From an uncultured Acidobacteriota bacterium (GTDB lineage Bacteria; Acidobacteriota; Vicinamibacteria; Vicinamibacterales; CAVVIG01): a stretch of DNA of 64,000 nt. Below the pieces are notes generated by a model. It did not search any database and was not told the DNA's origin. It worked only from the letters and a program-made list of their open reading frames with translations. The first letter of the stretch is position 1. The number at the start of each line of letters is the position of its first letter. The stretch is from the NCBI GenBank assembly GCA_963794705.1, contig CAWCFI010000003.1, positions 519,531 through 583,530 of the forward strand, given 5' to 3'. The position numbers were made by a program, and so were the translations under genes. Shown here piece by piece: positions 6,417 to 51,551 of the stretch.

Positions 6417-7572
6417 ATGCAACGACGTGATTTCCTGCGGCGTCGGCGCAGCCTCGCTGGCGCCTGGCGCGTCGAGGCGCGGCGCCAGTCGGCTCCGCCA
6501 TCTCCCGCCGCGACCGTGCTTTACGATGATCGCGCGGTCGCGCTCGATCGCATCGGCCCGGCCGCGCTGCGCGCGACGCGGCGCCTTGTGGATTCGTAAG
6601 CGCGATCTGCCGCGCGTCAACGGCTTCGAGCTGAAGCCGCAGGGCGCGTGCCGCGCCGACCTCTGTATTCCCATCCCGAAGACGATGACGCGCGGCGAGT
6701 ACTTCAACCTCACGGCCTTCGCGAAGAAGGCGGGCCAGGCGGTCGTCGCCGAACCGGCGGCACGCGTCTGGAGTTTCGGCGAGATGCAGGCGCTCGGCGG
6801 CGGGCTCGCCAACTCCCGCGTCGCGCCTGACTTCGAAGTCTCCGATCGGCGGGGCCGTCCCGTGCATCTTGCCGGTTTCCGCGGCAAGAAGGCGCTGGTG
6901 ATCACCTGGGCCTCCTGGTGAGGGTGCCGCTTTGATCTGCCAGGCTGGCAGAAGGTCTACGCGGAGCTGAAAGACCAGGAACTTCGAGATCATCGCGGCG
7001 GCGCAGGACGTCGGGCGGCGAAGCGGCCGCCGGCAGGTGGTACGACGCCGCGAAGGCGACGTTCACCACGCTGGTCGACACCAAGCACACCGTCAGCTCG
7101 GTGTTCCAGTTCATCAACGTGCCGATGGGCGTGTGGATTGACGAGAACGGGCGCGTCGTGCGCCCCGCCGAGCCGGCGTGGGCCGCGAGCCGCACCGACG
7201 TCTACGGCGGCAAGCCGCTCGAGATCGAAGGCGAACTGTACGTCGCCGCGCTGCGCGACTGGGTCGCCAACGGCGACAAGAGCGAGTACGTGCTCTCCGA
7301 CGAAGAGTTCGCGCGGCGCGTGAGGCCGCGCTCGCCTGCCGAAATGGAAGCCGAAGCCAGCTTCAAGCTCGCGGTCTGGTTCCAGCAGGCGGGCAACCCG
7401 GAGCTCGCCGCAGAAGTATTTCGAGCGCGCGCAGACGCTCAACCCCGACGACTGGAACTATCACCGTCAGGAATGGAGCTTCACGGGCGAAGCCGGCAAG
7501 AAGTGGCTGGAGAAGTTCAAGGGGTTCGACAAGGAGTACTACCCGAAGCTGCAGCTCAAAGAAGGGGGCTAG
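6417..7572 (+). pseudogene. Tat-signal thioredoxin-fold (TlpA/ResA-like) protein with in-frame TGA at the redox motif; multiply frameshifted
   Basis: MQRRDFLRGVGAASLA twin-arginine signal. ...GKKALVITWASW-TGA-GCRFDLPGWQKVYAELKDQ-NFEIIAAAQDVGG-...AGRWYDAAKATFTTLVDTKHTVSSVFQFINVPMGVWIDENGRVV...-KYFERAQTLNPDDWNYHRQEWSF...KLQLKEGG. About six frame changes are needed to read it. Confidence 0.6.
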
Positions 7573-8908: not shown

Positions 8909-11125
8909 ATGACTCGAAGAGTGTTTCAATCCCTGGTGGCCGTCGTCTCGCTCGTCCTGCTGGTCGGCCTGAAGCTCGCCGGGCAGACCGCCGGCGATGC
9001 CGAGCACGAAGAACGGCGACTGGACGCACTACACCGCCGATATGCGCGGCACCAAGTACTCGCCGCTCGATCAGATCAACGCGCAGCAACTTCAATCAGC
9101 TCGAAGTCGCGTGGCGGTTCAAGACCGACAACCTCGGCACGCGCCCCGAGTTCAAGCTCGAAGGCACGCCGCTGGCGATCAAGGGCGTCCTCTACACGAC
9201 CGCCGGCACGCGCCGCTCGGTGGTCGCGCTCGACGGCCGCACCGGCGAGCTGATCTGGACGCACAGCTACCGCGAAGGCAACCGCGCCGCGATCGCGCCG
9301 CGCCAGCTGTCGGGCCGCGGCGTCTGGTACTGGACCGACGGCAAGGGCGACGACCGCATCCTCTACGTCACCACCGGCTATCGCCTGATCGCGCTCAACG
9401 CCAAGAACGGCGCGATGGTCTCGTCGTTCGGCGAAGGCGGCGTCGTCGATCTGAAGAAGGGCGCGGTCATCGGCAAGGGCCAGCAGATCGAGCTGGAGAC
9501 CGGCGAGATCGGCCTGCACTCGACGCCGACCATCGTCGGCAACATCGTGCTGATCGGCTCGTCGTTCAAGGAAGGCATGACGGTCGCGACGCACAACAAC
9601 ACCAAGGGCCTGGTGCGCGCGTTCGACGTGAAGAGCGGCAAGCTGCTGTGGACGTTCAACACGATTCCGCGCCCCGGCGAGTTCGGCAACGACACGTGGG
9701 AAAACGAGTCGTGGGCGATCAACGGCAACACCGGCGTGTGGACGCAGATCACGGTCGACGAGGAAGCCGGGCCTGGTCTATCTGCCGGTCGAAGATCCGA
9801 CGTCGGACTACTACGGCGGCCATCGGCCCGGCAACAACCTGTTCGGCGACAGCATCGTCTGCGTCGACCTGAAGACCGGCCAGCGCAAGTGGCACTTCCA
9901 GATCGTGCATCACCCGATCTGGGACTACGACATGTCGTCGGCGCCGATCCTGCTCGACGCCAACGTCAACGGCAAGCTGGTCAAGGCGGTCGCGGTGCCG
10001 AGCAAGCAGTCGTTCCTCTACGTGTTCGATCGCATCACCGGCCAGCCGATCTGGCCGATCGAAGAGCGCGCCGGTGCAGCAGTCGGACGTGCCGACGGAG
10101 AAGACGTCGCCGACGCAGCCGTTCCCGACCAAGCCGCCGGCCTACGGCCGTCCGTTCCTCAAGGTGCCGGACGATCTGATCGACTTCACGCCGGCGATGC
10201 GCGCGCAGGCGCTCGAGAATCTCAAGAGCTATCGCGTGGCGGGGATGTACAACCCGCCGCTGCTCGGCACAGGTCGGCGGACGCTGCGCGGCGCGATCAA
10301 CGTCGGCAACGCGAGCGGCGGCACCAACTGGCCGGGCGCCGGCGCCGATCCGGAAACGCACACCGTCTACGCGCAGGCGGCGATGGCGTTCGTCAGCGGC
10401 CTGTCGCTGCGCGAGCCGCCGGCGACGCTTCGCTCGGACATGAAGTACGTCTCGGGCGTCGACGGCACCGAATTCCGCGAAGCGCTCGGCCCGGGCTTCG
10501 GCAGCGCGGCCGACTCGCCGCTCGCGGCGGCGCGCGGACGCGCCGGCGCGGCGCGGCGCCGGCGCGCCGACGCGCCGGCGGCGGGACGCGGCGGCCGTGG
10601 ACGCGGCGCGGCGCGGCGGCGGCGCCCGGCGCGCCGGCGCCGCCCGCGGGCGGCGGCGGCGGCCTCCAGGTCGAAGGCCTGCCGATCGTGAAGCCGCCGT
10701 ACGGCGTGCTCGCGGCGATCGATCTCGACAAGGGCGAGCTGAAGTTCCAGGTGCCGCACGGCGACACGCCGGACAACGTCCGCACCAATCCCGCGCTGCA
10801 GGGGATGAACATCCCGAAGACCGGCCAGAACGGCAGCGTCGGCCTGATGGTCACCAAGACGCTCGTCGTGCTCGGCGATCCGCAGGTGACGGCGCCGCCG
10901 GGACGCGCCGCGCGGCGCGATGCTGCGCGCCTACGACAAGAACAACGGCACCGAGGTCGGCGCCGTGTGGATGCCGGCGGCGCAGAGCGGATCGCCGATG
11001 ACCTACATGGCCGACGGCAAGCAGTACATCGTCGTCGCGGTCAGCGGCGGCAACTACTCGGGCGAGTACATCGCGTTCGCGCTGCCGAACGCGGCCGCGG
11101 AACACCAGCGTCGGGCAGCAGCTAA
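8909..11125 (+). pseudogene. Soluble PQQ-dependent dehydrogenase (glucose/quinate/shikimate-type), paralog A, at least 7 frame changes
   Basis: SD GCAGGAG then ATG 8909. Signal peptide. Colinear with paralogs B and C ([78 protein letters not shown]) but read across frames 2,0,1,2,0,2,0. No stop in the last frame before gene B, so the end is approximate. Confidence 0.8.
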
Positions 11126-11160: not shown

Positions 11161-13367
11161 ATGACACGAACATTGAAACGCACCGTGCTGGCGGCCGCCG
11201 CCATCGCCGGCGTGGCCGGGCTGATGACCGCCGGGCCGCGCATGACGGCCCAGCTCTCGGGGCAGGCCCCGGGATTCCCGAGCACCAAGAACGGCGAGTG
11301 GCCGTACTACACCGCCGACGTCAAGGGCTCGCGCTACTCGCCGCTCGATCAGATCAACGGCAGCAACTTCAACCAGCTCGAAGTCGCCTGGCGCTTCAAG
11401 ACCGACAACCTCGGCACGCGTCCCGAGTTCAAGCTCGAAGGCACGCCGCTGATGGTCAAGGGCGTCATCTACGCGACCGGCGGCACGCGCCGCTCGGTGG
11501 TCGCGCTCGACGGCAAGACCGGCGAGCTGATCTGGGTCCACGCCGAGAAGGAAGGCGCCCGCGCCGTCAACGCGCCGCGCCAGCTCTCGGGCCGCGGCCT
11601 CTCCTACTGGACCGACGGCAAGGGTGACGACCGCGTCATCTACGTCACGCCCGGCTATCGCCTGATCTCGCTGAACGCGAAGACCGGCGTGCCAATCACC
11701 GGCTTCGGCAGCAACGGCGTCGTCGACATGAAGGTCGGCGCCGTCGTCGGCAAGGGCCAGCAGATCGATCTGGAGACCGGCGAGATCGGCCTCCACTCGA
11801 CGCCGACCATCGCCAAGGACGTGATCATCGTCGGCTCGTCGTTCCGCGAAGGCCTGACGGTGAAGACGCACAACAACACCAAGGGCCTGGTGCGCGCGTG
11901 GGACGTCCGCACCGGCAAGCTGCTGTGGACGTTCAACACGATCCCGAAGCCGGGTGAATTCGGCAACGACACCTGGGAGAAGGAGTCGTGGGCGCAGAAC
12001 GGCAACACCGGCGTGTGGACGCAGATCACCGTCGACGAGGAGCTCGGCCTGGTCTACCTGCCGGTCGAGGATCCGACGTCGGACCTCTACGGCGGCCATC
12101 GTCCCGGCAACAACCTGTACGGCGACAGCCTGGTGTGCGTCGACCTGAAGACCGGCCAGCGCAAGTGGTACTACCAGATCGTCCATCACCCGATCTGGGA
12201 CTACGACATGCCGGCGGCGCCGCTGATCGCCGACATCAACGTCAACGGCAAGCCGGTCAAGGCGGTCGCGCAGGCGACCAAGCAGGGGCTGCTCTACGTG
12301 TTCGACCGCGTCACCGGACAGCCGGTGTGGCCGATCGAAGAGAAGCCGGTGCCGCAGACCGACGTTCCCGGCGAGAAGACCTCGCCGACGCAGCCGTTCC
12401 CGAGCCGTCCGCCGGCCTATTCGCGCAACGGCGTGATCGAGAGCGATCTGATCGACTTCACGCCGGAGCTCAAGGCCGCGGGTCTCGAAGCGTCGAAGCG
12501 CTTCCGCCTCGGCCCGGTGTTCCTGCCGCCGGTCGTCAGCAAGCTCGAAGGCCCGATCGGCGCGCTGACCTCGGGCACGCTGAGCGGCGGCGTCAACTGG
12601 CCGGGCTCGGCCTACGATCCGGAAATGCATGCCTTCTTCACGCATGCGTGCAACTCGTGCATCGCGCCGCTCGGCCTGGTCGCGCCGCCGAAGGACTTCT
12701 CGGATCTCGACTACGTGATGGGCACCGCCGGCGCCACATTCCGTCCGATCGAGGGTGGCGGTGTCGGCGAATCGGCCGACTCGCCGCGTCCCGCTCGTCC
12801 GGCGACACCTCCCCCGCCACCGACTCCTCCGCCGGCCGCGGCGGGTGGCGGTCGCGCGGGTGCTCCGCCGGCAGGTGGCGGCGGCGGTGGATTCGGTGCG
12901 ACGGTTCAGGGTCTGTCGATCGTCAAGCCGCCGTACGGCCAGATCGTCGGCATCAACCTGGACAAGGGCGAGCTGATGTGGTCGACGCCGCACGGCGACA
13001 CGCCTGACGCGGTCCGCAATCATCCGGCGCTGAAGGGTGTGAACATCCCGAAGACCGGTCAGCAGGGCAACGTCGGCGTGGTCGTGACCAAGACGCTGGT
13101 CGTATCCGGCGATCCGAGCGTGACGACGACGCCGGAGCATCCGCGCGGCGCGATGCTGCGTGCCTACGACAAGAACACCGGCGCGCAGGTCGGCGCGGTG
13201 TGGATGCCGGCGCCGCAGAGCGGCTCGCCGATGACCTACTAGCGTGGACGGCCGCCAGTACATCATCGTCGCGGTCAGCGGCGGCAACTACTCGGGCGAG
13301 TACATCGCGTTCGCGCTGCCGCAGTCGGCGACGCGCGGCACGGCGGGACGGTCGGTAGAATTCAGAA

Positions 13368-15747: not shown

Positions 15748-16840
15748 ATGCGCGCGTTCGTAGCCACCCTTGCGTCGATCATCGCCGTCGGTCTGCTGTC
15801 GCCGGCCGCCACGCTCCAGGAAAAAATGGAGAAGGGCGGCGAGGAAGAAACCGGCCCCTATACGGTGGTCGAGAACTGGCCGACGCCGTGGTCGCGGCAG
15901 GGCTACATCTGGGGATCGCAGCCGGGCATCTTCGCCGAGACGCCGAACCGGATCTTCATCGCCGCGCGCGGCGAGCTGAAGCTGCCCGACACGCTGCCGC
16001 GCGGGTTCAACGGCATCTGGGGATCGATGAACCAGCGCGCCACCGAGCCCAAGCCCGAGATGCGCAACTGCATCGTCATCGTCGACGGCAGCGGCAAGCT
16101 GATCGAGGCGTGGACGCAGTGGGACAAGCTGTTCGAGGGCGGCGGCGGACCGCACAAGATCCGCATCAGCCCGTACGATCCGCAGAAGCACGTCTGGGTC
16201 GTGAACGACGCGCGCCACCAGATCTACGAGTTCACCAACGACGGCAAGCAGCTGGTGCGGACGCTGGGTGAAGCCGACGTCGCCGGCGAACGACGACACG
16301 CATTTCGGCCGGCCGCAGGACATCGCCTGGCTGCCCGACGGCAGCCTGCTCGTCGCCGACGGTCTCGGCAACTCACGCGTCGCGAAGTTCGACAAGAACG
16401 GCGTCTTCGTGAAGGCGTGGGGCACGCGCGGCAACGCGCCGGGCCAGTTCAGCGGCCCGCACGGCATCGCCACCGATCGCAGCGGCCGCGTCTACGTCGC
16501 CGATCGCACCAACCACCGCATCCAGATCTTCGACGGCGACGGCAAGTTCCTCGACCAGTGGCCCGGGCTGCGCCAGGCCAACGACATCGTGATCGACAAG
16601 AATCAGCACGTCTGGGTCGCCGACGGCACCAACTCGAAGGTGCTGGAATACGATCAGAGCGGCAAGCTGCTCTATTCGTGGGGCACCTACGGCACCTTCC
16701 CGGGCGCCTTCTGGGAGCTGCACCAGATGTCGATCGACTCCGAAGGCAATCTCTATGGCGCCGACAGCTTCGGCGGCCGCGTGCAGAAGTTCACGCCGCG
16801 GGCCGGAGCCGATCGATCGAAGCTGATCGTGACGTACTAG
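15748..16840 (+). pseudogene. Secreted NHL-repeat beta-propeller protein (peptidyl-alpha-hydroxyglycine lyase-like), one frameshift near 16287
   Basis: Signal MRAFVATLASIIAVGLL. ...HQIYEFTNDGKQLVRTLGEADVAG then, in the second frame, DDTHFGRPQDIAWLPDGSLLVADGLGNSRVAKFDKNGVFVKAWGTRGNAPGQFSGPHGIATDRSGRVYVADRTNHRIQIFD. Confidence 0.75.
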
Positions 16841-39680: not shown

Positions 39681-41372
39681 TCACCCGTTTGGGCGGGTCG
39701 GCTTCCAGCCCGGTCCGCGCACCACGCGGCCCGGTTTCTGGCCGGTGTGCTCGCCGTTCTTCAGGACCTGTCCCCCGTTGACCCAGACATGCTTGACGCC
39801 GACGGCGTACTGGTGCGGCTTCTCGTAGGTCGACGTGTCGGCGACGGTCTTCGGATCGAACACCACGACGTCCGCGAAGAATCCGGGCGCAAGCGTGCCG
39901 CGCTCCTTGATGCGCAGCGTCGCCGCCGGGAACGACGTCAGCTGGCGAATCGCTTGTTCCATCGGGATCACGTGCTCGTCACGCACGTACTTCCCGAGCA
40001 GGCGCGCGAAGTTGCCGTAGGCGCGCGGGTGCGTGCTGGTCTTGATGAAGACGCCTTCGGGAGCCATCGAGGAGGCGTCGGAGCCGAAACTGACCCACGG
40101 CAGCGCGATCTGCCGCTTGACGTTCTCCTCCGACATCAGGAAGTACACAACCTGGACACGACTGCCGTCCTCGACGACGAGATCCATCGCGGTGTCCTGC
40201 ACGCTCTTGCCGCGCGCCGTGGCGACCTCCTCCAGCGTCTTGCCTGCGTAGTGTCGCAGCGCTTCGTTCTTGAAGCCGACCAGCAGCGTGCCTTTGCCGC
40301 CCGCGGCGAGCATCAGGTTTTCCCAGGCCGGGCCCGGCGCCGTCATCTCGCGACGGACGCGTTCGCGGATCTTCGGGTCCTGGAGCCGTTTGGCCCACGC
40401 CTTGTAGCCGCCTTCCTGCACCCACGGCGGCATCGCCGCATCGAGGCCGGTGCTGCCGGCGGTGTAGTTGTACATGTCGGCGGTGATGTCCAGTCCCTCT
40501 TTGCGCGCACCCTCGATTTTCGCGATCACCGCGTCGAGCTTGCTCCAGTTCGACTGGCCGCTTTCCTTGAGGTGATAAATCTCGACGCGAATCTTCGCCT
40601 CTCTGGCGATCGTCAGCGTTTCGTCGATCGCCTCGAGCAGGCGGTCGCCTTCGCTGCGCATGTGCGAGATGTACATCCCGCCCGACGCCGACGCGACCTT
40701 GGCGAGCTCGACCAGCTCGTCGGTCCTGGCGAAGACGCCGGGAATGTAGATCAGCGCGGTGGTCAGCCCCATCGCGCCCTCGTCCATCGCGACGCGGACG
40801 TGGGCGCGCATCCGATCGAGCTCCTCCGCGGTCGGCGGCCGGTTATCGAGGCCGATTTCGTTGGCGCGGACCGTCGCCGCGCTGACGAACGACGCGACGT
40901 TGGTCGAGATGCCGCGCGCCACCAGGTGATCCAGGTAGCCGCCGAGCGTGTTCCAGACGATGTTGAACTTGATGTCGCCCTGGCGCTCCATCAGGTCCTT
41001 CTTCATCTGCTCGTTGACCGGCCCCATCGAGCTCTCGCCGAAGACTTCGAGCGTGACGCCCTGCCGCAGCGTCCCCTGCGCGTGTCCGTCCGCGATCAGC
41101 GACGACTCGGAGTGGCTGAGCATGTTGATGAAGCCGGGCGCGACCGCAAGTCCGGTCGCGTCGATCTCGTCCCGCCCGCGCTCGCCGCCGAGATCGCCGA
41201 CGGCCGCAATGCGATCGTCGAGGATGGCGACATCACCGACCTTGCCGGCGCCGCCGGTCCCGTCGTAGATCGTGCCGTGGCGGATGACGACATCGTACTT
41301 GGCCGGCGGCTTCGAGCATCCGGCGACCGCGGACGCGATCAGGGCGATGGACGCGAGGACGGTTCTGCTCAT
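39681..41372 (-). CDS. N-acyl-D-amino-acid deacylase (D-aminoacylase) family amidohydrolase, lipoprotein
   Basis: 563 aa. Lipobox AVAGC. YDVVIRHGTIYDGTGG...APGFINMLSHSE. Confidence 0.85.
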   Translation of the reverse strand: MSRTVLASIALIASAVAGCSKPPAKYDVVIRHGTIYDGTGGAGKVGDVAILDDRIAAVGDLGGERGRDEIDATGLAVAPGFINMLSHSESSLIADGHAQGTLRQGVTLEVFGESSMGPVNEQMKKDLMERQGDIKFNIVWNTLGGYLDHLVARGISTNVASFVSAATVRANEIGLDNRPPTAEELDRMRAHVRVAMDEGAMGLTTALIYIPGVFARTDELVELAKVASASGGMYISHMRSEGDRLLEAIDETLTIAREAKIRVEIYHLKESGQSNWSKLDAVIAKIEGARKEGLDITADMYNYTAGSTGLDAAMPPWVQEGGYKAWAKRLQDPKIRERVRREMTAPGPAWENLMLAAGGKGTLLVGFKNEALRHYAGKTLEEVATARGKSVQDTAMDLVVEDGSRVQVVYFLMSEENVKRQIALPWVSFGSDASSMAPEGVFIKTSTHPRAYGNFARLLGKYVRDEHVIPMEQAIRQLTSFPAATLRIKERGTLAPGFFADVVVFDPKTVADTSTYEKPHQYAVGVKHVWVNGGQVLKNGEHTGQKPGRVVRGPGWKPTRPNG

Positions 41373-41385
41373 GCGGACAGTCTCC

Positions 41386-41943
41386 TCAATGCGGCGTGCG
41401 CTCGACGACCGGCCGCCCCTGGTGGCACATGTAGCACTGGGTGCGCGGCGCGCGGATCGCGCTGTCGAAATAGGTCGGGATCAGATCGAAGATCGGCGCC
41501 ATCCGCGCGACCATCTGGTGCGGGCGCTTCGTTCCGGCGGTCCAGTCGCCGTCGACGTGACAGTGCGAGCACGCGACGCCCAGCGACGCCGCATACACGC
41601 TCATCGCGAGGCTCAGGTTGTCGCGGCCGGCGAACTCTGTTGTATGGACGGCGGCGATCGATTCCCAGTTGGCGCGCGGCAGCCGCGGCGGCGCGGTCTG
41701 TCCCCGATGACAGCTCCAGCAGGTGACGCCGCCAAGCGCCTGCAGCGGCCCGTCGTTGAGCCCCTGGACCATGCGCACCATCCGGCGCGCGAAGTCGAAC
41801 GCCGGCTTGGTCGAGTCGGCGAAGCTGCCGGCGGTGTGGCAGTGTTCGCAGCCGACGCCGAGCGCGACGTTGTAGGTGCGCGCCGCCGCATGCTCCGGCG
41901 CCGCCGCCAGGAACACCGCCGCAATCGCCACGACCCACGTCAT
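41386..41943 (-). CDS. Tetrahaem c-type cytochrome (reaction-centre cytochrome c subunit-like fold)
   Basis: 185 aa, signal peptide. Four CxxCH motifs (CEHCH, CWSCH, CSHCH, CYMCH), two of them preceded by Met-rich helices (RRMVRMV, HQMVARM). Confidence 0.8.
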   Translation of the reverse strand: MTWVVAIAAVFLAAAPEHAAARTYNVALGVGCEHCHTAGSFADSTKPAFDFARRMVRMVQGLNDGPLQALGGVTCWSCHRGQTAPPRLPRANWESIAAVHTTEFAGRDNLSLAMSVYAASLGVACSHCHVDGDWTAGTKRPHQMVARMAPIFDLIPTYFDSAIRAPRTQCYMCHQGRPVVERTPH

Positions 41944-42002
41944 CGCCGCAGAGTGTACTCGCGAAATATGTTGCCGGGACGGCGCGCTCCGGGTGTAAAT
42001 TC

Positions 42003-43490
42003 GTGGCGAACCGTCGGCTTCGAGGAGGTCCGCTCATGGCGTACGACCGTCGGCCGAGACGTCTGGGTCTGTTCAGCCTGTTGCTCACCGCCTCCGCGAC
42101 GGCCGGCGTCGGCCTGATCGCCCAGGCCCCCGCGACACCTGCTCCAGAGGTGACGTTCACCAGGGACATATCCCGTATCCTGCAGCGCAGTTGTCAGGAG
42201 TGCCATCACGCCGACGGCGTCGCGCCGATGGCGCTGATCACCTACGAGGACGTCCGGCCCTGGGCCAAGTCGATCAAGGCGCGAACCGCGCTGCGCAGCC
42301 AGCGCGGCGCGATGCCGCCGTTCTTCGTCGAGAAGAACATCGGCATCCAGAAGTTCAAACACGATCCCTCGCTCAGCGACGACGAGGTCGCGATGGTGGC
42401 GAAGTGGGTCGACAACGGCGCCCCGCGCGGCAACCCCGCCGACCTGCCCAAGGCGCTCGAGTTCGAGGGCACCGACAAGTGGACGATCGGCGAACCCGAT
42501 CTGATTCTGCGATCGAAGGACGTCACGGTGCCGGCGATCGGCCCGGACAGGTGGGGCGACTTCGGGCTGATCCCGACCGGGCTGAACGAGGACCGCTACG
42601 TGTCGGCGGTCGAAGTGCGCGAGGTCAACGACATCCCGCACGACAAGTCGGTGGCCACCGTCGGCGGTCGCTACGTCTTCCACCACATGACCTACGAGAG
42701 CATCGTCGAGGGCGAGCGCGCGAGCAGCGGCGCCAACGAGGGCGGCGGCAGCTGGCCGATCCACGAGGTCGGACGCAACGCCGATATCTTCCCGCCGGAG
42801 GCAGGACGACTGCTCGCCGCACACTCGTCGCTCTCCTTGAACGCCGGCCACCTCCACTCGAACGGCCGCGAGACCAGAGGGCACCTCGAGTTCGCGTTCA
42901 AGTTCTTCCCGCTCGGCTACAAGCCGATCTACAAACGATCGGGCGTCCGCCTCGGCGACGGCATCAACATCGACGTGCGCCCCAACGAGTCCGGCCAGGA
43001 GCTCCACGCCTACGCGGTGCTGCAGGAGCACACCAAGTACATCACCTTCGAGCCGCACCTGCACGCGCCCGGCGTCCGCATGTGCCTCGAGGCGATCTGG
43101 GGGCACAACATCCAGACGCTCAACTGCGTCGGCTACGACCACAACTGGGTGAAGCAGTACGTCTATGACGACGATGCGGCGCCGCTGCTGCCGAAAGGGA
43201 CGATCGTCCATCTGATCGGCTTCCTCGACACCACCGCCGCGAACAAGAACCCGGTCGATCCCAGAAACTGGGCGGGCGGCGGACGGCGCTCGGTCGCCAA
43301 CATGTTCATCGACCTCGGCTACTCGGTCTCGCTGACCGAAGACCAGTTTCAGGCGGAGATGGCGAAGCGGCGCAAGAACATGAAGAGCCGCAACGACTAC
43401 GACATCGGCTGTCCGTTGTGCTGGGCGCCGCCGACCGCGACGGCGACCTCGACCGCCGCGACGCCCGGGCGCCCGCAGGATCCGCAGTGA
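42003..43490 (+). CDS. Haem-c domain fused to PHM/DBH-like type-2 copper monooxygenase-like domain
   Basis: 495 aa, signal or anchor. CQECH at residues 64..68. His/Met pattern H227-H228...H283/H285...H352-x-H354...M434, with GGGRRSVANMF resembling the GG..S..EMC motif. Confidence 0.6.
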   Translation: MANRRLRGGPLMAYDRRPRRLGLFSLLLTASATAGVGLIAQAPATPAPEVTFTRDISRILQRSCQECHHADGVAPMALITYEDVRPWAKSIKARTALRSQRGAMPPFFVEKNIGIQKFKHDPSLSDDEVAMVAKWVDNGAPRGNPADLPKALEFEGTDKWTIGEPDLILRSKDVTVPAIGPDRWGDFGLIPTGLNEDRYVSAVEVREVNDIPHDKSVATVGGRYVFHHMTYESIVEGERASSGANEGGGSWPIHEVGRNADIFPPEAGRLLAAHSSLSLNAGHLHSNGRETRGHLEFAFKFFPLGYKPIYKRSGVRLGDGINIDVRPNESGQELHAYAVLQEHTKYITFEPHLHAPGVRMCLEAIWGHNIQTLNCVGYDHNWVKQYVYDDDAAPLLPKGTIVHLIGFLDTTAANKNPVDPRNWAGGGRRSVANMFIDLGYSVSLTEDQFQAEMAKRRKNMKSRNDYDIGCPLCWAPPTATATSTAATPGRPQDPQ

Positions 43491-44407
43491 TGCGGCGTCT
43501 GTGGTGCGCCGCGGGAGCGGCGTTGCTGATGATCACCGCCGCGAACGCGCAGATGCGGTTCACCTACTCGAGCGGCCAGGTCGTGTCGCCGGCATACGAG
43601 GGGTGGCGCACCGAAGACGACGGCTCGCAGACGCTGGTGTTCGGCTACATGAACCAGAACTGGGCGGAGGAATTCGACATCCCGATCGGGCCGGACAACA
43701 GCATCGAGCCGGGAGGACCGGATCGCGGCCAGCCAACGCATTTCTATCCGCGCCGCAGCCCGTTCCTCTTCACCATCAAGGTGCCCAAGGATTTCGGCGA
43801 CAAGGAACTGATCTGGACGGTGAAGACGCACGGCAAGATCGAAAAGGCCTACGCCTCGCTCAAGAACGACTACATGATCGACAACCAGGTGATCTCGACT
43901 GAAGTCGGCGGCGACTTCGGCAGCCTGCGCGACGAGCTGCGCACCAACCTTCCGCCCACCCTCAAGGTCGAAGGTGAAAACAAGAGGATGACCAAGGTCG
44001 GTGCGCCGCTGACGCTGACCGCGATCGCCAAGGATCCCGACAACATCCCCGCGCGTCGCGGGCGCGGCGCCTCGCTGCCGACGTCGATGCCCGCGGCGGC
44101 GTTGTATCGCGCCCCGACGTCGCTCGTGCCGGCGAGCGGCCCTGGCCTGCGGCTGTCGTGGATCGTCTACCGCGGCAAGGCGGCCGACGTCACGTTCAGC
44201 CCGGAGCAGATGAAGGCGTGGACCGACACCCGCGCCTACGGCAACTCGCCGTGGTCGCCGCCCTACTTCATCCCCGAGCCGCCCCCGAACAACACGTGGA
44301 TCACGGACGTGACGTTCAAGGAAGCGGGTACCTACGTGCTGCGGGCCGTCGCCAGCGACGGCGCGGTGTTCACCTACGACAACGTGACAGTCACGGTAAC
44401 GCGGTAG
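43490..44407 (+). CDS. Secreted protein of unknown function
   Basis: TGATG overlap with the upstream gene. MRRLWCAAGAALLMITAANAQ signal peptide. 305 aa. Ig-like C-terminal text (TDVTFKEAGTYVLRAVASDGAVFTYDNVTVTV). Confidence 0.6.
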   Translation: MRRLWCAAGAALLMITAANAQMRFTYSSGQVVSPAYEGWRTEDDGSQTLVFGYMNQNWAEEFDIPIGPDNSIEPGGPDRGQPTHFYPRRSPFLFTIKVPKDFGDKELIWTVKTHGKIEKAYASLKNDYMIDNQVISTEVGGDFGSLRDELRTNLPPTLKVEGENKRMTKVGAPLTLTAIAKDPDNIPARRGRGASLPTSMPAAALYRAPTSLVPASGPGLRLSWIVYRGKAADVTFSPEQMKAWTDTRAYGNSPWSPPYFIPEPPPNNTWITDVTFKEAGTYVLRAVASDGAVFTYDNVTVTVTR

Positions 44408-44448
44408 CGCGACGGCTTTGAACGGAGCGCGAAGGCTTCAGCCGAGCG
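44404..44448. repeat. REP-like GTAG-headed element (two partial copies)
   Basis: GTAGCGCGACGGCTTTGAACGG then GCGCGAAGGCTTCAGCCGAGCG. The TAG stop of the upstream gene (44405..44407) lies in the GTAG head. Confidence 0.45.
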
Positions 44449-44456
44449 GGAGAAAC

Positions 44457-44858
44457 ATGACGCGTGTAAAGCTCCTCACGATTCTGTGTGCGGTCGCCGC
44501 GCCGATCTGGGTCGTCGGCCAGACCAGCAACTTCATGGGCGGGACGCCGGGCGCGGTTGATGCCACCAAGGTGCGCACTACCCGACTGAAGTTCCCCAAG
44601 GGCAGCCGCTCCAACTGGCACAGTCACACCTGGGGCCAGCTGCTGATGCTCGAAGAGGGCAAGGGCCGGACCCAGGTGCGCGGCGGCCCGGTGATCGAAA
44701 CCGCGCCGGGCCAGCCGTGGTGGACCGCGGCGGGCGTCGAACACTGGCACGGCGCCGCGCCGGACACCGACGCGCTGCAGCTCACGATCTACGAGGGCGA
44801 CGTGAAGTGGCTCGAGCCGGTCCAGGACAAGGAGTACCTCGCGGCGCCGAAGAAGTGA
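44457..44858 (+). CDS. Secreted cupin domain protein
   Basis: Signal MTRVKLLTILCAVAAPIWVVGQ. Cupin motifs GSRSNWHSHTWGQLLMLEEG and GVEHWHG. Confidence 0.75.
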   Translation: MTRVKLLTILCAVAAPIWVVGQTSNFMGGTPGAVDATKVRTTRLKFPKGSRSNWHSHTWGQLLMLEEGKGRTQVRGGPVIETAPGQPWWTAAGVEHWHGAAPDTDALQLTIYEGDVKWLEPVQDKEYLAAPKK

Positions 44859-46628
44859 TCGTCGCGCTCCTGGCGGCCGCCGTTCTCGCGGGACTGCCTC
44901 AGGCACCCGACGGCTCGGCGATCTTCGCGCGCGACTGTTCGAGCTGCCATGACGGCGCCACCGGGTCGCGCGCGCCGAGCCCCGATCTCCTCAAGCGCCG
45001 ATCGCCGGAAGCGATCCTCGCCGCATTGACCGCAGGCGGCATGCGTCCGCAGGGCGGCCGCCTGAGCGGCGCCGAACGTCGCGCCGTCGCCGAATATCTC
45101 AGCGGCCGCGCGCTCGGCAGCGACATCACCGGCGCGAAGATCGGACGCTGCACCGCCTCGCCGCCGCTGGTCGATTCCGCCTCCTCACCCGCCTGGCGCG
45201 GCTGGTCGCCGTCGGCGGCCAACACCAGATTCCAGTCTGCGCAGCAGGCCGGCCTCACCGCGGAGCAGGTGCCGAAGCTGTCGTTGAAGTGGGCCTTCGG
45301 GTTTCCCGACGCCACCTCGGCGTGGTCGCAGCCGACCATCGCCGCCGGCCGGCTGTTCGTCGGCAGCCAGAACGGCACCGTTTACTCGCTCGACGCGGAG
45401 AGCGGGTGCATCTACTGGACCTTCACCGCCAAGAGCGGCGTGCGCACCGCGCTGTCGTTCGGCCCGCGCGAAGGCGCCGGCTACGCGGTCTACTTCGGCG
45501 ACACCGGCGCCAATGTCTATGCGCTCGACGCGGCAACCGGGCGGGAGTTGTGGTCGCGGCGGCTGGACGACCATCTCTACGCTCGCATCACCGGATCGCC
45601 CACGCTGTTTCAGGATCGCCTGTACGTGCCGGTCTCGTCGATGGAAGAGACCGCCGCCAGCCAGCCTGGCTACGAATGCTGCACGTTCCGCGGCAGCCTG
45701 AACGCGCTCGACGCGAGAACCGGCGCCACCCTCTGGCGAACCTGGATGGTGCCGGAGGCGCAGGCCGCCGGAAAGAACGCCGCCGGCGCAGCGCTGTGGG
45801 GACCATCGGGTGTCGGCATCTGGTCGGCGCCGACGATCGACGTCAAGCGCGGTCTGATCTACGCCGGCACCGGCAATACCTACAGCGCGCCGGCCCAGCC
45901 GACCGCCGACGCGATTGTCGCCTTCGATCTGCAGAGCGGCGCGATCAAGTGGATCCATCAGTTGACCGCCGGCGACGTCTTCGGCTGCCGCGCCGGCAGC
46001 GCGAACTGTGGCGAGAAGGCGGGGCCGGACTTCGATCTCGGAACGCCGCCGATGCTGGTCACGGTGGCGGGGCGGGACGTGATCATCGCGGCGCAGAAAT
46101 CCGGCAACGCGTTCGCGCTCGATGTCGAGAAGGAGGGTGCGCTGCTCTGGCAGTATCACGCCGGAGAAGGATCGATCTGGGGTGGCATCCAATGGGGCGC
46201 CGCCGTCGACGGTGAGCGCGCCTACTTCCCGGTGTCGGATATCCGGACCCCGAAGCCAGGCGGCCTGCACGCGGTGGATCTCGTCAGCGGCGACGCGCGC
46301 CTGGTACCTGCCGCCGCCGCCGCTGAAGTGCGCGGCCGGCACCGGCTGCAGCGCCGCGTTGATTTCCGCGCCGACGCTCATTCCCGGCGTGCTGTTCTCC
46401 GGGTCGAACGACGGCGCGCTGCGCGCGCACGCCACCCGGGACGGCGCAGTGATCTGGGAGTTCGACACCAATCGGGAATTCGAGACCTTGAACGGCATCA
46501 AGGCCGGCGGCGGCGCGATCCAGGGTCCGGGACCGACCATCGCCGGCGGCATGCTCTACCTCAACTCAGGCTACGGCAATCATCTCGGCCGCCCCGGCAA
46601 CGTCCTGCTCGCCTTCGAGGTGCAGTAG
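44855..46628 (+). pseudogene. Quinohaemoprotein dehydrogenase with N-terminal haem-c domain (polyvinyl-alcohol dehydrogenase-like), one frameshift near 46291
   Basis: GTG at 44855 overlaps the cupin stop (GTGA). CSSCH haem site. PQQ propeller text (GRLFVGSQNGTVYSLDAESG...). The C-terminus RAWYLPPPPLKCAAGTGCSAALISAPTLIPGVLFSGSNDGALRAH...GNVLLAFEVQ is in ORF 46122..46628. Confidence 0.8.
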
Positions 46629-47160: not shown

Positions 47161-47913
47161 GTGATGGACACGCTCGTCGACCAGGTCCGCCGCTGGCTCG
47201 CCGCCGCGACACGTGTGGTCGCGCTCACCGGCGCCGGGATTTCCACCGAGTCCGGCATTCCCGACTTCCGCGGGCCGCAGGGTGTCTGGACCAGGAATCC
47301 GAAGGCCGAGAAGCTGTCGAACATCCAGCACTACATGGCGGATCCCGAAGTGCGGCGGCTCGCCTGGCAGAGCCGTCTCGAGCATCCGGCCTGGAGCGCC
47401 ACGCCGAACGCCGGCCATCGCGCGCTGGTCGAGCTCGAGCGCCGCGGCACAATGCTCGCGCTGATCACGCAGAACATCGACGGCCTCCACCAACTGGCCG
47501 GTCATCCGCCGGAACACATCCTCGAAGTCCACGGCACGATGCGTGAGGTGATGTGCATGGCCTGCAGCTGGCGCGGACCGATGCCGCTCGTGCTCGATCG
47601 CGTGCGCGCCGGCGAAGAGGATCCGCCCTGCGAGCGCTGCGGCGGGATCCTGAAGAGCGCGACCATCTCGTTCGGCCAGTCGCTCGATCCGGTGGTCATC
47701 GACCGGGCGATGCGCGCCGCCGAGCACGCCGACCTCCTGCTGGCGATCGGCACCACGCTGCAGGTCTACCCGATCGCCGGGGCCGTGCCGCTGGCCAAGG
47801 CGGCCGGCGCCCGGCTCGTGATCATCAACGCCGAACCGACGCCGTTCGACGACATCGCCGACGCCGTGTTCAGAGATCCGATCGGCGTCGTCCTCCCGAG
47901 GATTGCATCATGA
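47161..47913 (+). CDS. cobB: NAD-dependent protein deacylase (Sir2/CobB family)
   Basis: 250 aa. GAGISTESGIPDFRGPQGVW, QNIDGLH, Zn ribbon CMAC...CERCGG. Confidence 0.88.
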   Translation: MMDTLVDQVRRWLAAATRVVALTGAGISTESGIPDFRGPQGVWTRNPKAEKLSNIQHYMADPEVRRLAWQSRLEHPAWSATPNAGHRALVELERRGTMLALITQNIDGLHQLAGHPPEHILEVHGTMREVMCMACSWRGPMPLVLDRVRAGEEDPPCERCGGILKSATISFGQSLDPVVIDRAMRAAEHADLLLAIGTTLQVYPIAGAVPLAKAAGARLVIINAEPTPFDDIADAVFRDPIGVVLPRIAS

Positions 47914-47923
47914 CCTTGGCTGA

Positions 47924-49314
47924 TCAATCGCGAGGCCGCTGCAGATCCTTCAGCTGCAACGCATTGATGTCGGCGATGATCTTCGCATAGGCGCGCGTCG
48001 TCGCCGCCAGGCCGTCGGCGGGGATGATGTCGGGCGTCTCCTTGTCGGAGTGCCAGTAGAGGCCGGTATCGATCAGCTGCATCGACGGCGCAAGATTCTG
48101 GATCCGGCCGATCTCGCCGGCCGCGCCGCGCTCGCCGCGGTCGTAGATCGGCACGCCGAAGCTGCGGTAGGCGCCAAGCACGATTTCCTCGAGCGAGTGG
48201 CTGCCGCCGACGTACCAGCATCAGCGGCGAGGTCGAACTCGCCTTGCGCACCGTGCCGTTGTAGGAGACCAGCTGGTTCGCCGCGGTGTGCTCGCAGTTG
48301 ATCAACAGCGCCGTCTTCGCGAACAGCTCGGGATGCTGCGACAGCCAGGTGCCGCTCTCCGCGGTGCCGTCGTGATGGCCGGTCGACCCGATAAACGTGA
48401 TCGTGCGGCGCCGCTGCGACGCCGGCACCTTCGCGAAGTACTCGGCGATCCCGAGCAGCGTCGCGATGCCGGTGCCGTTGTCGTTCGCGCCTTCGAACCA
48501 GCCGTCGCGATGCGCGACGACCATGACGTTCTCGTCGCTGGTGCCAGGCAGCGTGCCCCAGATCGTCGCGGTCTTCAGTCCGGGGACCATTTTCACGTCG
48601 AGTGCCAGCCTGACGCGTGGGGCGGGGCCGCCGGCCGATTTCGCGATCAGCTCACGCACCGCCAGCCCATCGTCCTGTCCGAGCGCAAAGGTCGGCATCG
48701 CGCTCTGCACCGGATAGAACTGGAAGTGCAGGTTGCCCGGGATCATCAGCGTGATGAAGATCGCCGCGGCGCCCTTCTCGCCGATGCGCTTCCACGCGCC
48801 GTTGGACGCGGTGGCGTGGCGCGACATGTAGTCGTTGCTGTAGAAGAAGACCGCCTTCCCCTTCAGATCCTGACGCGCGAGATCGGCGTCGGTGGCGAGT
48901 CCGACATCGACCGCTTCGAGCTCGAGCCCACCCGCCGGTGTGGCGACGCCACGATGGGTCGGCTGCGCGCTGCCGAGCACAAGGCTCTTGCCGCCGCCAG
49001 ACGCGCTGACGCTCCACGACTCCGGCATCCACTGCGGCGGCAGATCGAACGGCTGGTCGTGGACATCGGAGACCCCGAGCGCCTTGAGCTTCGCCATCAG
49101 CCAACGGCCGTTCTCGGCGTCGGCCTCACTGCCGATGATCCGGCCCCAGAACTGCGGATGCCCGTTGTCGCGATAGCGCCGCGACATCGCCGCCAGCTCC
49201 TCGACGTACAGACTTCAGGTGCGCGCCGTCGATCGACGCATACGAGTCGGCCGCGCGCAGCGGCAGCACCAGGCACGACACTCCCGCGATGATCGCCACG
49301 ATCGTTCGCCGCAT
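47924..49314 (-). pseudogene. M28 family metallopeptidase, secreted, at least 2 frameshifts
   Basis: AAGGAGG SD and ATG at 49314 (MRRTIVAIIAGVSCLVLPLRA). HRDGWFEGANDNGTGIATLLGIAEYF. The C-terminus FGVPIYDRGERGAAGEIGRI...YAKIIADINALQLKDLQRPRD is in ORF 47924..48181. Confidence 0.75.
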
Positions 49315-49406: not shown

Positions 49407-51551
49407 ATGACGCGCAGATTCGGGCTCCTGTGTCTGTCGGCGGCGTTGCTTGCGGTCTCCACGGGGCTCTCGGGACAGGATCGCGCGGGCGCGGCGCGTC
49501 CGCCGTCGACCGCCAGCGGCGACTGGCCGCACTACACCGCCGACATGCGCGGCACGAAGTACTCGCCGCTCGATCAGATCAACGCCGCCAACTTCAAGAC
49601 GCTCGAAGTCGCCTGGCGCTTCAAGACCGACATGCTTGGGCCGCGCCCCGAGTACAAGCTCGAAGGCACGCCGCTCGCGATCAACGGCGTCCTCTATACG
49701 ACCGGCGGCACCCGGCGCTCGGTGGTCGCGCTCGACGGCAAGACCGGCGAGTTGTTGTGGGCGCACAGCTTGCGTGAGGGTAAGCGCGCCGGCGTCTCGC
49801 CGAGACAGCTGTCGGGCCGAGGGCTCTCGTACTGGACCGACGGCCGCGGCGACGACCGCGTGCTCTATGTCACCACCGGTTATCGCCTGGTCGCGCTCAA
49901 CGCCCACAACGGCGCGCCGATCGCCGGCTTCGGCAAGGATGGCATCGTCGATCTGAAGGAGGGCGCGGTGTTCGGCGCCGGGCAGCAGATCGATCTCGAG
50001 ACCGGCGAGATCGGCTGGCACGCGACCCCCGCCATCGCGAAGGACGTCGTCATCGTCGGATCGTCGTTTCGCGAAGGCGCAACCGTCAGCACCCACAACA
50101 ACACCAAGGGCCTGGTGCGCGGTTTCGACGTGCGGACCGGCAAGCGCCTGTGGACCTTCAACACGATCCCGCTGCCCGGCGAGTTCGGCAACGACTCGTG
50201 GGAGAAGGACTCGTGGGCCGTCAATGGCAACAACGGCGTCTGGACCCAAATCACCGTGGACGAAGAGCTCGGCCTCGTCTATCTGCCGGTCGAGACGCCG
50301 ACTTCCGACTACTACGGCGGACACCGGCCCGGCAACAACCTGTTCGCCGAAAGCCTGGTCTGCGTCGATCTCAAGACCGGCGTCCGCAAGTGGCACTACC
50401 AGCTGGTGCACCATCCGCTCTGGAACTACGACATGTCCTCCGCGCCGATCCTCGCGGACATCACCGTGAACGGGCGGGCCATCAAAGCGGTGGCGGTCGC
50501 CGGGAAGCAGGCGTTTCTGTTCGTCTTCGATCGCGTCACTGGACAACCGGTCTGGCCGATCGAGGAGCGGCCCGTGCCGACGTCGGACGTGCCGGGCGAG
50601 ACCACGAGCCCGACGCAGCCGTTTCCGACCAGGCCGCCGGCCTACGCCCGGAACTATCTGAAGGTTCCGGACGATCTGATCGACTTCACGCCGGAGCTCC
50701 GCGCCCAGGCGATCAAGAACATCTCACGCTACAAGGTCGGACCGTGGATGTACAACCCGCCGGTGCTCGGCGACGTCAACGGCGTGCTCGGCGCGATCAA
50801 CATGGGCAACGCGGTGGGAGGCACCAACTGGCCGGGCATCGCCTACGACCCGGAAACCCACACCGCCTTCGCCAACGCGAACAACGTCGGCATCACCTCG
50901 GGATCGCTGGTGCCGCCGCCGCCGAACTTTTCGGACATCCGGTATGTGTCGGGTATCGCCGGACGGCCGTTCACCGAGGTGATCGGCCCGGGCGACTGCT
51001 GCGCCGCCGACTCGCCGCGAGCGGCCGCGCAGGCGGCGGCGCAACGAGCCGCCGCGGCGGCGCCGCCCGCACCGGCCAACGCGCCAACGGTCGGCGGCGG
51101 TGCCGGCGGCGGCCTGCTCGTGGACGGCCTGACCATCCTCAAGCCGCCCTACGGCACCATCTCCGCCATCAACCTCGATCGCGGCGACATCGTCTGGCAG
51201 GTGGCGCACGGCGACACGCCGGACAACGTCCGGAATCATCCCGCGCTCAAAGGTCTGACGATTCCAAAGACCGGACAGGCCGGCACCGGCGGCATCGGGC
51301 TGATGGTGACGAAGACGCTGGTGGTGATGGGCGATCCGCAGTTGACGACGACGCCCGATCATCCGCGCGGCGCCATGCTGCGCGCCTACGACAAGAGCGC
51401 GGGCGCGGAAGTCGGCGCCATCTGGATGGCGGCGCCGCAGAGCGGCTCGCCGATGACCTACCTCGTGGACGGCAAGCAGTACATCGTGGTGGCGATCAGC
51501 GGCGGCAACTACTCGGGGGAATACGTCGCGTTCACGCTGCCGCAGCGGTGA
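49407..51551 (+). CDS. Soluble PQQ-dependent dehydrogenase, paralog C (intact)
   Basis: 714 aa, GGAGGA SD, signal peptide. [55 protein letters not shown]. Confidence 0.9.
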   Translation: MTRRFGLLCLSAALLAVSTGLSGQDRAGAARPPSTASGDWPHYTADMRGTKYSPLDQINAANFKTLEVAWRFKTDMLGPRPEYKLEGTPLAINGVLYTTGGTRRSVVALDGKTGELLWAHSLREGKRAGVSPRQLSGRGLSYWTDGRGDDRVLYVTTGYRLVALNAHNGAPIAGFGKDGIVDLKEGAVFGAGQQIDLETGEIGWHATPAIAKDVVIVGSSFREGATVSTHNNTKGLVRGFDVRTGKRLWTFNTIPLPGEFGNDSWEKDSWAVNGNNGVWTQITVDEELGLVYLPVETPTSDYYGGHRPGNNLFAESLVCVDLKTGVRKWHYQLVHHPLWNYDMSSAPILADITVNGRAIKAVAVAGKQAFLFVFDRVTGQPVWPIEERPVPTSDVPGETTSPTQPFPTRPPAYARNYLKVPDDLIDFTPELRAQAIKNISRYKVGPWMYNPPVLGDVNGVLGAINMGNAVGGTNWPGIAYDPETHTAFANANNVGITSGSLVPPPPNFSDIRYVSGIAGRPFTEVIGPGDCCAADSPRAAAQAAAQRAAAAAPPAPANAPTVGGGAGGGLLVDGLTILKPPYGTISAINLDRGDIVWQVAHGDTPDNVRNHPALKGLTIPKTGQAGTGGIGLMVTKTLVVMGDPQLTTTPDHPRGAMLRAYDKSAGAEVGAIWMAAPQSGSPMTYLVDGKQYIVVAISGGNYSGEYVAFTLPQR

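Follow-up and report, generated by a model that had tools for sequence, protein, structure and literature searches.

A putative cytochrome c-fused copper protein of the PHM/DBH type and its probable partner beside PQQ dehydrogenases of Acidobacteriota: a candidate periplasmic hydroxylase system

Copper monooxygenases of the PHM/DBH type are, to our knowledge, known almost only from animals. In animals, these ascorbate-dependent enzymes produce hormones and neurotransmitters. Here, we describe a locus at positions 41,386 to 46,628 of a 64,000-nucleotide stretch from an uncultured Acidobacteriota bacterium (Vicinamibacteria, Vicinamibacterales, CAVVIG01; GenBank assembly GCA_963794705.1, contig CAWCFI010000003.1, positions 519,531 to 583,530 of the forward strand), which is called the window below. 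The first plus-strand gene of this locus (gene 1) encodes a secreted protein that is, judged from its sequence, a haem c domain fused to a divergent two-copper monooxygenase of the PHM/DBH type. It is followed by a gene for a secreted all-beta protein (gene 2), by a gene for a secreted cupin, and by a gene for a quinohaemoprotein with a pyrroloquinoline quinone (PQQ) propeller. The closest named relatives of the window proteins are found in metagenome-assembled genomes (MAGs) of Vicinamibacterales. We propose that the products of gene 1 and gene 2 form a periplasmic two-subunit hydroxylase that works together with a PQQ dehydrogenase through c-type haems, a reading to which we assign a probability of about 0.5.

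Described systems with related parts

The described enzymes that are closest to gene 1 are the copper type II, ascorbate-dependent monooxygenases, namely peptidylglycine alpha-hydroxylating monooxygenase (PHM), dopamine beta-hydroxylase (DBH) and tyramine beta-monooxygenase. The likeness lies in the pattern and spacing of the copper ligands (HH...H and HxH...M), in the D-x-M context of the methionine and in the two-jelly-roll core of the gene 1 model, which is of low confidence. Gene 1 differs from these enzymes in being bacterial and periplasmic, in carrying a fused cytochrome c in place of the supply by ascorbate/cytochrome b561, in having a separate partner encoded by gene 2, in the lack of a DOMON or PAL domain, and in a divergence that lies beyond the reach of the curated models. 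The PQQ enzyme of the locus resembles the polyvinyl alcohol (PVA) dehydrogenase (cytochrome), PVADH, EC 1.1.2.6, of the pvaA-pvaB-cytC systems of Pseudomonas sp. VM15C and Sphingopyxis sp. 113P3, since both are periplasmic and have a haem c domain before the PQQ propeller. However, the locus contains no gene for an oxidised-PVA hydrolase, and the neighbours of its PQQ gene are the haem-copper monooxygenase pair and the cupin instead. Type II quinohaemoprotein alcohol dehydrogenases (ADH IIB, Comamonas testosteroni, 1kb0) are likewise soluble periplasmic PQQ propellers with a covalently linked haem c domain, but this domain is located at the other end of the protein, C-terminal there and N-terminal here, and the position of their Cys-Cys pair is unmatched. 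A functional parallel is provided by fungal lytic polysaccharide monooxygenases (LPMOs) with cellobiose dehydrogenase or PQQ pyranose dehydrogenase. There, a cytochrome-bearing dehydrogenase feeds an extracytoplasmic copper monooxygenase, and the fungal PQQ pyranose dehydrogenase can pass electrons to LPMO (PMC6472588), which is the kind of coupling that we infer for the present locus. The fungal systems are eukaryotic and use an unrelated histidine-brace copper site and a b-type cytochrome, whereas here c-type haems and operon-linked genes are present.

Full-text literature searches brought up no account of a bacterial PHM/DBH homologue with a fused cytochrome c, nor one of this set of genes, and neither gene 1 nor gene 2 falls into a curated family. 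The names on record for both are "hypothetical", "cytochrome c" or obvious mis-annotations, and none of them is functional. A first-pass annotation of this DNA, made from the sequence alone, knew of no characterised system with such a composition, and we found no annotation or paper on the gene 1/gene 2 family either. The catalytic fold and the class of the PQQ enzyme are known, and the fusion, the putative partner subunit, the linkage to quinoproteins and the abundance are new.

Gene 1 and its probable partner, gene 2

The N-terminal domain of gene 1 is a mono-haem cytochrome c with the haem motif C53xxC56H57 and an MPP motif that contains M93. The only Pfam match of the protein is a weak one to Cytochrome_CBB3, and even at E<=10 the window protein gives no match to PF01082 or PF03712. 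Homologues are abundant. A search of 1.84 billion cluster representatives yielded 7,053 clusters at 50% identity that match gene 1 with E<=1e-10, and among the matches listed there are more than 5,955 clusters at 90% identity for gene 1 and more than 6,578 for gene 2. The top 120 matches of both genes are 70-95% identical, those of gene 1 being 72-90% identical. The assignment of the region behind the haem domain is based on a fold model, on distant relatives and on the conservation of putative ligands. The fold was modelled with AlphaFold2 from an alignment of 44-46 close homologues, and Foldseek aligned this model (mean pLDDT 52) with human DBH (4zel; probability 1.00, E 1.5e-3, TM 0.32, 302 columns), with the PHM structures 3mih and 1sdw (probability 0.63-0.66) among the jelly-roll matches. 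Moreover, 27 diverse relatives of gene 1, which are 32-52% identical and were taken from an exhaustive search of cluster representatives, were compared with the two Pfam models of the superfamily. PF03712 (Cu2_monoox_C) matches seven of them, with P0270 (24.8 bits) and P0299 (23.6 bits) over the 23-bit cut-off, and PF01082 (Cu2_monooxygen) matches four, all under its cut-off. The relative P0348 has PF01082 followed by PF03712, both in the expected order and position. Because the curated models match only distant relatives, gene 1 is placed in this group at the level of the superfamily and via intermediates.

The putative copper ligands were followed in representatives of the 50%-identity clusters. 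For the CuH site, the candidates are H216 (conserved in 96/100), H217 (97/100) and H272 (87/93), and for the CuM site H341 (75/78), H343 (73/78) and M423 (57/60). These six residues are thus 94-99% conserved, whereas other histidines that are invariant in close homologues vary. The haem motif CxxCH is kept in 85 of 86 representatives and the methionine of the MPP motif in 102 of 104. The arrangement also fits the superfamily, in which a His-His pair is followed by the third histidine of CuH about 55-65 residues on, and HxH by the methionine of CuM about 70-80 residues on. With a diverse alignment, hhalign places H216/H217, H272, H341/H343 and M423 onto H107/H108, H172, H242/H244 and M314 of rat PHM, respectively, in a statistically weak match of 255 columns; the rat sequence was checked against the PDB. 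This register is seen only with diverse alignments, and the alignment of close homologues gave no match to PHM. Hence, the first-pass view of gene 1 as a cytochrome c-copper monooxygenase is supported by the fold of the low-confidence model, the Pfam matches of distant relatives, and the conservation and register of the ligands, although neither Pfam nor NCBIfam recognises the relationship on this protein itself. If it resembles PHM and DBH in this as well, the protein would bind copper and act as a hydroxylase. Extra domains of longer family members showed no link to PQQ enzymes or cupins. At the C-terminus, gene 1 carries a GCPLC motif (residues 459-463, window positions 43410-43424), whose cysteines are found in 19 of 25 (C459) and 19 of 24 (C462) of the main-clade representatives that cover them, and which does not occur in the paralogous gene 1 clades. 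A role in copper handling or in redox chemistry is possible.

Gene 2 had been described as a protein without a recognisable motif, and searches of Pfam, NCBIfam and PDB sequences with it were indeed empty. Its low-confidence AlphaFold2 model (pLDDT 51) found only generic immunoglobulin-like Foldseek matches, and its mean column identity is 63%. The genomic context was studied in a sample of 80 gene 1 loci, of which 52 have full flanks, i.e., at least 5 kb on both sides. Gene 2 comes directly after gene 1 in 77 of the 80 loci and in all 52 with full flanks. It also stands next to paralogous copies of gene 1, in pairs at 35-43% identity. Furthermore, the two genes are found fused in both orders, with loss of the internal signal peptide (P0269 and P0272, and P0275 and P0277, all of them metagenomic cluster representatives). 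An apparent genomic fusion of gene 2 and gene 1 in a Gemmatimonadota locus (L084) proved to be two adjacent genes. It is due to the adjacency, the pairing in paralogous copies and the fusions in both orders that we tie gene 2 to gene 1 and regard it as an obligatory partner. Judged from these patterns, its product is probably the second subunit of the gene 1 enzyme, and the two proteins would then form a physical complex.

Quinoproteins, cupins and other genes around the pair

Neighbouring genes were counted within 7 kb of the gene 1-gene 2 pair. Any PQQ dehydrogenase is present in 37 of the 52 full-flank loci, the N-haem PVADH-like type in 22 and other PQQ types in 18. The nearest PQQ gene lies not more than 1 kb from the pair in 37 loci and not more than 1.7 kb in 44 of the 50 loci that have such a gene. 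Most often it directly precedes gene 1 or comes after gene 2, sometimes with the cupin gene in between, and in about 30 loci it is on the same strand as the pair with short gaps. A dihaem cytochrome c is present in 19 of the 26 loci with a haem-less PQQ type and in none of the 21 loci with the N-haem type only. The cupin is found at 57-93% identity in 29 of the 80 loci; among those with full flanks it occurs in 22, and 20 of these also have a PQQ gene. Thus, what recurs is the gene 1-gene 2 pair together with a PQQ dehydrogenase and its c-type haem, either fused or as dihaem cytochrome, and often a cupin. The association extends over Vicinamibacterales, Bryobacteraceae, other Terriglobia and Gemmatimonadota, and gene order, strand and PQQ subtype vary among the loci. 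The neighbourhood of five genes that had been considered at first is therefore reduced to the four plus-strand genes, which recur in varying order and with either type of PQQ partner; the fifth gene, encoding a tetrahaem cytochrome, is absent from the related loci.

One could argue that the pair is self-contained and shares no function with the PQQ genes and cupins, which would pile up around it because they are numerous. The presence of four PQQ-type genes in the 64-kb window, the varying order and strand, and the 30 of 80 loci without a nearby PQQ gene would be in line with this. However, the PQQ genes cluster at not more than 1 kb from the pair and often continue its strand with short gaps, the small cupin is nearly confined to loci with a PQQ gene, and the association is repeated in several lineages, which makes an accidental assembly unlikely. 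The interchange of PQQ types bears on another explanation, in which the pair is an electron sink: the haem would take electrons from PQQ dehydrogenases and the copper would reduce O2 to H2O2 or water, with no organic substrate involved. At least two unrelated PQQ types as partners fit a generic electron partner better than a substrate-specific one, and PHM-type sites can reduce O2 in uncoupled turnover. Nevertheless, the whole ligand set of a monooxygenase is conserved, including the CuM methionine, and a pocket for a specific substrate is suggested by the strong conservation of gene 2 and of the large catalytic core. A periplasmic waste of electrons would also conserve no energy, and cytochrome c oxidases already serve PQQ systems. 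An electron sink is therefore improbable in our view.

As PHM is the closest characterised chemistry, the pair could also act on a peptide or protein, by alpha-hydroxylation, by amidation, or by maturation of a cofactor or residue in neighbouring quinoproteins of lineages that are thought to lack PQQ synthesis. A gene for an NHL-repeat propeller lies near gene 1 in seven of the 80 loci (e.g., upstream in L050; also L022, L039, L058, and L070) and in about 10 of 40 loci with paralogous pairs, and the PDB matches of this propeller include the PAL domain of PAM (3fvz, 4e-29). In addition, the haem-less PQQ dehydrogenase that lies upstream of gene 1 in L078 (before position 7001), and similarly in about 25 loci, reaches 533 bits on TIGR04528, "acido-empty-quinoprotein group A", with a cut-off of 650. 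The same protein passes TIGR03075, however, and the PQQ proteins found here generally pass or approach ordinary PQQ-family models. The PAL match is only the third best after Thin and TRIM71, to which the NHL protein is nearer, no precursor-peptide gene was seen, and no NHL gene is present at this locus, the nearest one in the window being at 16268-16840. Action on a peptide is thus quite improbable. A PAM-like pairing of PHM and PAL was rejected as well, because the locus has no NHL/PAL-type gene and the seven loci among 80 do not make it general. The paralogous pairs, which are about 38% identical to the window pair (L085-L121, Vicinamibacterales, e.g., L088 1107-13061), lie among three to six copies of a gene for a secreted protein of about 320 amino acids that ends with ...EYACHEGN... 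and has no Pfam, NCBIfam or PDB match; the NHL-repeat propeller is found nearby.

The PQQ protein of the locus itself has a CSSCH motif within a Cytochrome_CBB3 match (7.7e-10, residues 16-82), followed by the PQQ propeller (PF01011, 3.7e-25; PQQ_2). This motif is the sole CxxCH, and the C-terminal 110 amino acids are propeller. The haem c domain is hence located N-terminal to the propeller, as had been noted before, and relatives have the same architecture. A haem at the N-terminus is the PVADH arrangement, in agreement with the title of Hirota-Mamoto et al. (2006). The single frameshift that had been suspected near 46291 is confirmed by alignment with four orthologous loci (L002, L004, L006, and L007), which places one extra C at about 46294. 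With the extra base removed, the protein has 590 amino acids and is colinear with intact relatives of about 600 amino acids, which are 71-91% identical and are named "polyvinyl alcohol dehydrogenase (cytochrome)" by JGI. Proteobacterial proteins of the same build are 39-42% identical over about 96% of the length. The best solved-structure match of the propeller is 1kb0 (5e-14), but the vicinal Cys-Cys is missing at the position where it is seen in 1kb0. A Cys-Cys is present in the sequence YECCTFRGS (residues about 250-258, window positions 45602-45628), right after a glutamate that is aligned to that of "AEYGVRG" in 1kb0. The break in the gene is either an assembly error or a recent inactivation, and other genes of the window also change frame. 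At least three genes in the 64 kb are broken in this way, namely this PQQ gene, another PQQ gene in the first part of the window and a peptidase-like gene downstream (Table 1), which suggests either an indel-prone assembly or gene decay.

The architecture of the PQQ enzyme, the names given by JGI to its close relatives and its identity of 38.9% over 96% of the length to WP_053556537 of Sphingopyxis sp. 113P3 could be taken as signs of a known pva-type operon, which degrades PVA or a similar 1,3-diol polymer. Yet the Sphingopyxis protein is plasmid-borne, whereas the characterised pva operon of this strain has been placed on the chromosome (PMC4611681), so that the protein may be a paralogue of pvaA. 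Moreover, natural soils contain far too many members of the family for a role in the breakdown of a synthetic polymer, and other genomes pair gene 1 and gene 2 with a different PQQ type. A tblastn search with the putative hydrolase that is encoded beside the Sphingopyxis gene, as oxidised-PVA hydrolase, found no homologue in the window or in about 80 gene 1 loci, and the missing hydrolase led us to reject the PVA pathway. A pva-type operon is accordingly very improbable, and PVA is unlikely to be the natural substrate of the PQQ enzyme.

A second, haem-less PQQ dehydrogenase is encoded 5 kb downstream in the window. The same type is found within 7 kb of gene 1 in five loci (L002, L043, L050, L065, and L071) and, in about 18 of 40 loci with paralogous pairs, at a distance of 2-4 kb from the pair. 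It may be an accessory of the system, as its relatives are found close to gene 1-gene 2 pairs in other loci. The cupin is a metal cupin of the GtHNL/TM1010 type. It shares with these manganese cupins (4bif, 4uxa, and 2f4p) the single barrel of about 130 amino acids and the motifs HxH...Q...H, with 4uxa and 4bif as closest solved structures (1e-15). It differs from them in its signal peptide and in its score with the (R)-mandelonitrile lyase model NF049940, which at 87.8 bits stays under the cut-off of 140. An equivalog of this lyase, a cytoplasmic manganese cupin, was therefore dismissed, and the kinship is one of fold and family only.

The arrangement of the genes is given in Table 1. The overlaps that had been described at the two junctions are present in the sequence exactly. 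Gene 1 and gene 2 overlap in TGATG, with the stop codon TGA at 43488-43490, the start codon ATG at 43490-43492 and one base common to both. The cupin and PQQ genes overlap in GTGA, the former ending with TGA at 44856-44858 and the latter opening with GTG at 44855. The same short N-terminus as from this GTG is found in P0461, which has 590 amino acids and is 88% identical to the PQQ protein. The cupin gene starts with ATG 44457, with GGGAGA as ribosome-binding site upstream. For gene 1, however, the start that had been assumed (GTG 42003) has to be revised. The ribosome-binding site GAGGAGG and the homologues of about 480 amino acids, which cover 99% of the query, make ATG 42036 the most likely start, and therefore the gap to the divergent tetrahaem cytochrome gene is 92 nucleotides (nt) instead of 60. 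Signal peptides had been assigned to all four products. Judged by eye only, they are clear for gene 1, gene 2 and the cupin, whereas that of the PQQ protein is short and without a charged N-region. A scan of the locus for promoters and terminators gave nothing informative.

Table 1. Features of the locus and of further window regions mentioned in the text (positions of the window; aa, amino acids; ORF, open reading frame).
Feature	Position	Strand	Basis or remark
PQQ dehydrogenase gene, same type as 49407-51551, at least five frame segments	9000-11087		
PQQ dehydrogenase gene, intact, 67% identical to 49407-51551	11161-13242		
Amidohydrolase	39681-41372	-	
Tetrahaem cytochrome c, 185 aa, four CxxCH	41386..41943	-	CytoC_RC 4e-17; NF033196 79.7
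GAGGAGG, ribosome-binding site of gene 1	42023..42029	+	6 nt before ATG 42036
Gene 1, secreted, 484 aa, cytochrome c and putative PHM/DBH-type copper monooxygenase core	42036..43490	+	ORF, ribosome-binding site, homologues
Gene 2, secreted, 305 aa, all-beta	43490..44407	+	adjacency to gene 1, fusions
Secreted cupin, 133 aa	44457..44858	+	Cupin_2 1e-07
N-haem PQQ quinohaemoprotein, PVA-dehydrogenase-like, one frame break	44855..46628	+	Pfam, NCBIfam
Extra base C, frameshift in PQQ gene	46294 (about)	+	alignment with L002, L004, L006, L007
Secreted protein, 152 aa	46649-47107	-	no family match
Peptidase-like gene with frame change near 48180	47766-49187	-	true C-terminus located in ORF 47924-48181
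Second, haem-less PQQ dehydrogenase, 714 aa	49407..51551	+	PF01011 1e-168

The divergent tetrahaem cytochrome had been counted as part of the system. Its four CxxCH motifs, CEHCH, CWSCH, CSHCH and CYMCH, can be read directly from the sequence as described. With 79.7 bits it is over the cut-off of 70 of NF033196, but with 67 bits under the cut-off of 150 of the PufC equivalog NF040706, and it is, by these scores, a non-photosynthetic relative of PufC. However, no homologue of it was found in the 80 gene 1 loci. The orthologous locus L002 has both flanking genes, but there the same amidohydrolase abuts gene 1, with 168 nt between them and no tetrahaem cytochrome. Conversely, gene 1 and gene 2 are both missing within 5 kb of about 14 genomic homologues of the cytochrome (49-68% identity), and two of these homologues come from MAGs in which a different contig has the gene 1-gene 2 pair. 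Therefore, the tetrahaem cytochrome was removed from the system. A PQQ-type dehydrogenase gene lies convergent and immediately downstream of its homologues in L131, L132, L135 and L149, and the cytochrome may therefore act in another quinoprotein system. Beyond the other end of the locus, the gene for the 152-aa secreted protein converges on the PQQ gene, whose stop codon is 20 nt away. This protein belongs to a 90%-identity cluster with 38 members, is absent from all gene 1 loci and was rejected as a member as well.

A proposed haem-to-haem relay and its meaning

The proposed system would work as follows. Gene 1 would contribute the c-type haem and an uncoupled copper pair, with His-His-His at CuH and His-His-Met at CuM, and gene 2 the all-beta subunit. 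By analogy with PHM and DBH, the pair would hydroxylate a C-H bond of an organic substrate with O2 and two electrons, which would enter via the fused cytochrome c instead of from ascorbate. This would yield an alcohol or else an unstable hydroxylated intermediate of the carbinol type, on which the cupin may act next, in the role that PAL has downstream of PHM. The PQQ enzyme would then oxidise the alcohol, or a related one, and hand two electrons back to the copper enzyme, from one haem to the next. Overall, RH2 + O2 -> R=O + H2O would result, and no cytoplasmic reductant would be needed. We regard this relay, with its putative electron exchange between the PQQ and copper enzymes and the putative part of the cupin, as the most economical mechanism. 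That the electrons return in a self-sufficient extracytoplasmic cycle, which would make the system an O2-dependent CH2-to-C=O "oxidase" for a natural soil compound, is a more tentative and rather doubtful part of the proposal.

Several points speak against a hydroxylase that works with a PQQ dehydrogenase. Apart from the weak cytochrome c match, gene 1 has no Pfam, NCBIfam or PDB sequence match, and the hhalign alignment to PHM has an E-value of 0.002-0.005 and a probability of 8-15%. The AlphaFold models of both gene 1 and gene 2 are poor, with mean pLDDT values of 52 and 51, respectively, so the fold matches are those of partial models. The fusion proteins are gene calls from metagenomes, and none was found in the genome collection. 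No PQQ gene occurs within about 7 kb of gene 1 in 30 of 80 loci, PQQ-type genes are abundant in these genomes, as seen from the four in the window, and the association is a count within the loci sampled. PQQ enzymes with cytochromes in the same operon are normal in quinoprotein systems, and the haem pattern alone is thus no proof that electrons return to gene 1. Finally, the PQQ gene of this window is frameshifted.

The gene 1-gene 2 pair is extremely common, and its strong conservation extends over hard-to-culture phyla that dominate in soil. The proposed system offers a concrete, testable function for two of the larger "hypothetical protein" families of soil metagenomes. For bioinorganic chemistry, gene 1 would provide a soluble, haem-wired model of the PHM/DBH copper site. 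If the relay is true, it would explain how a periplasmic monooxygenase is supplied with electrons, and a new enzyme system would have to be counted among those of soil carbon turnover. It would then represent a widespread and so far unrecognised attack on organic matter by Acidobacteriota and Gemmatimonadota.

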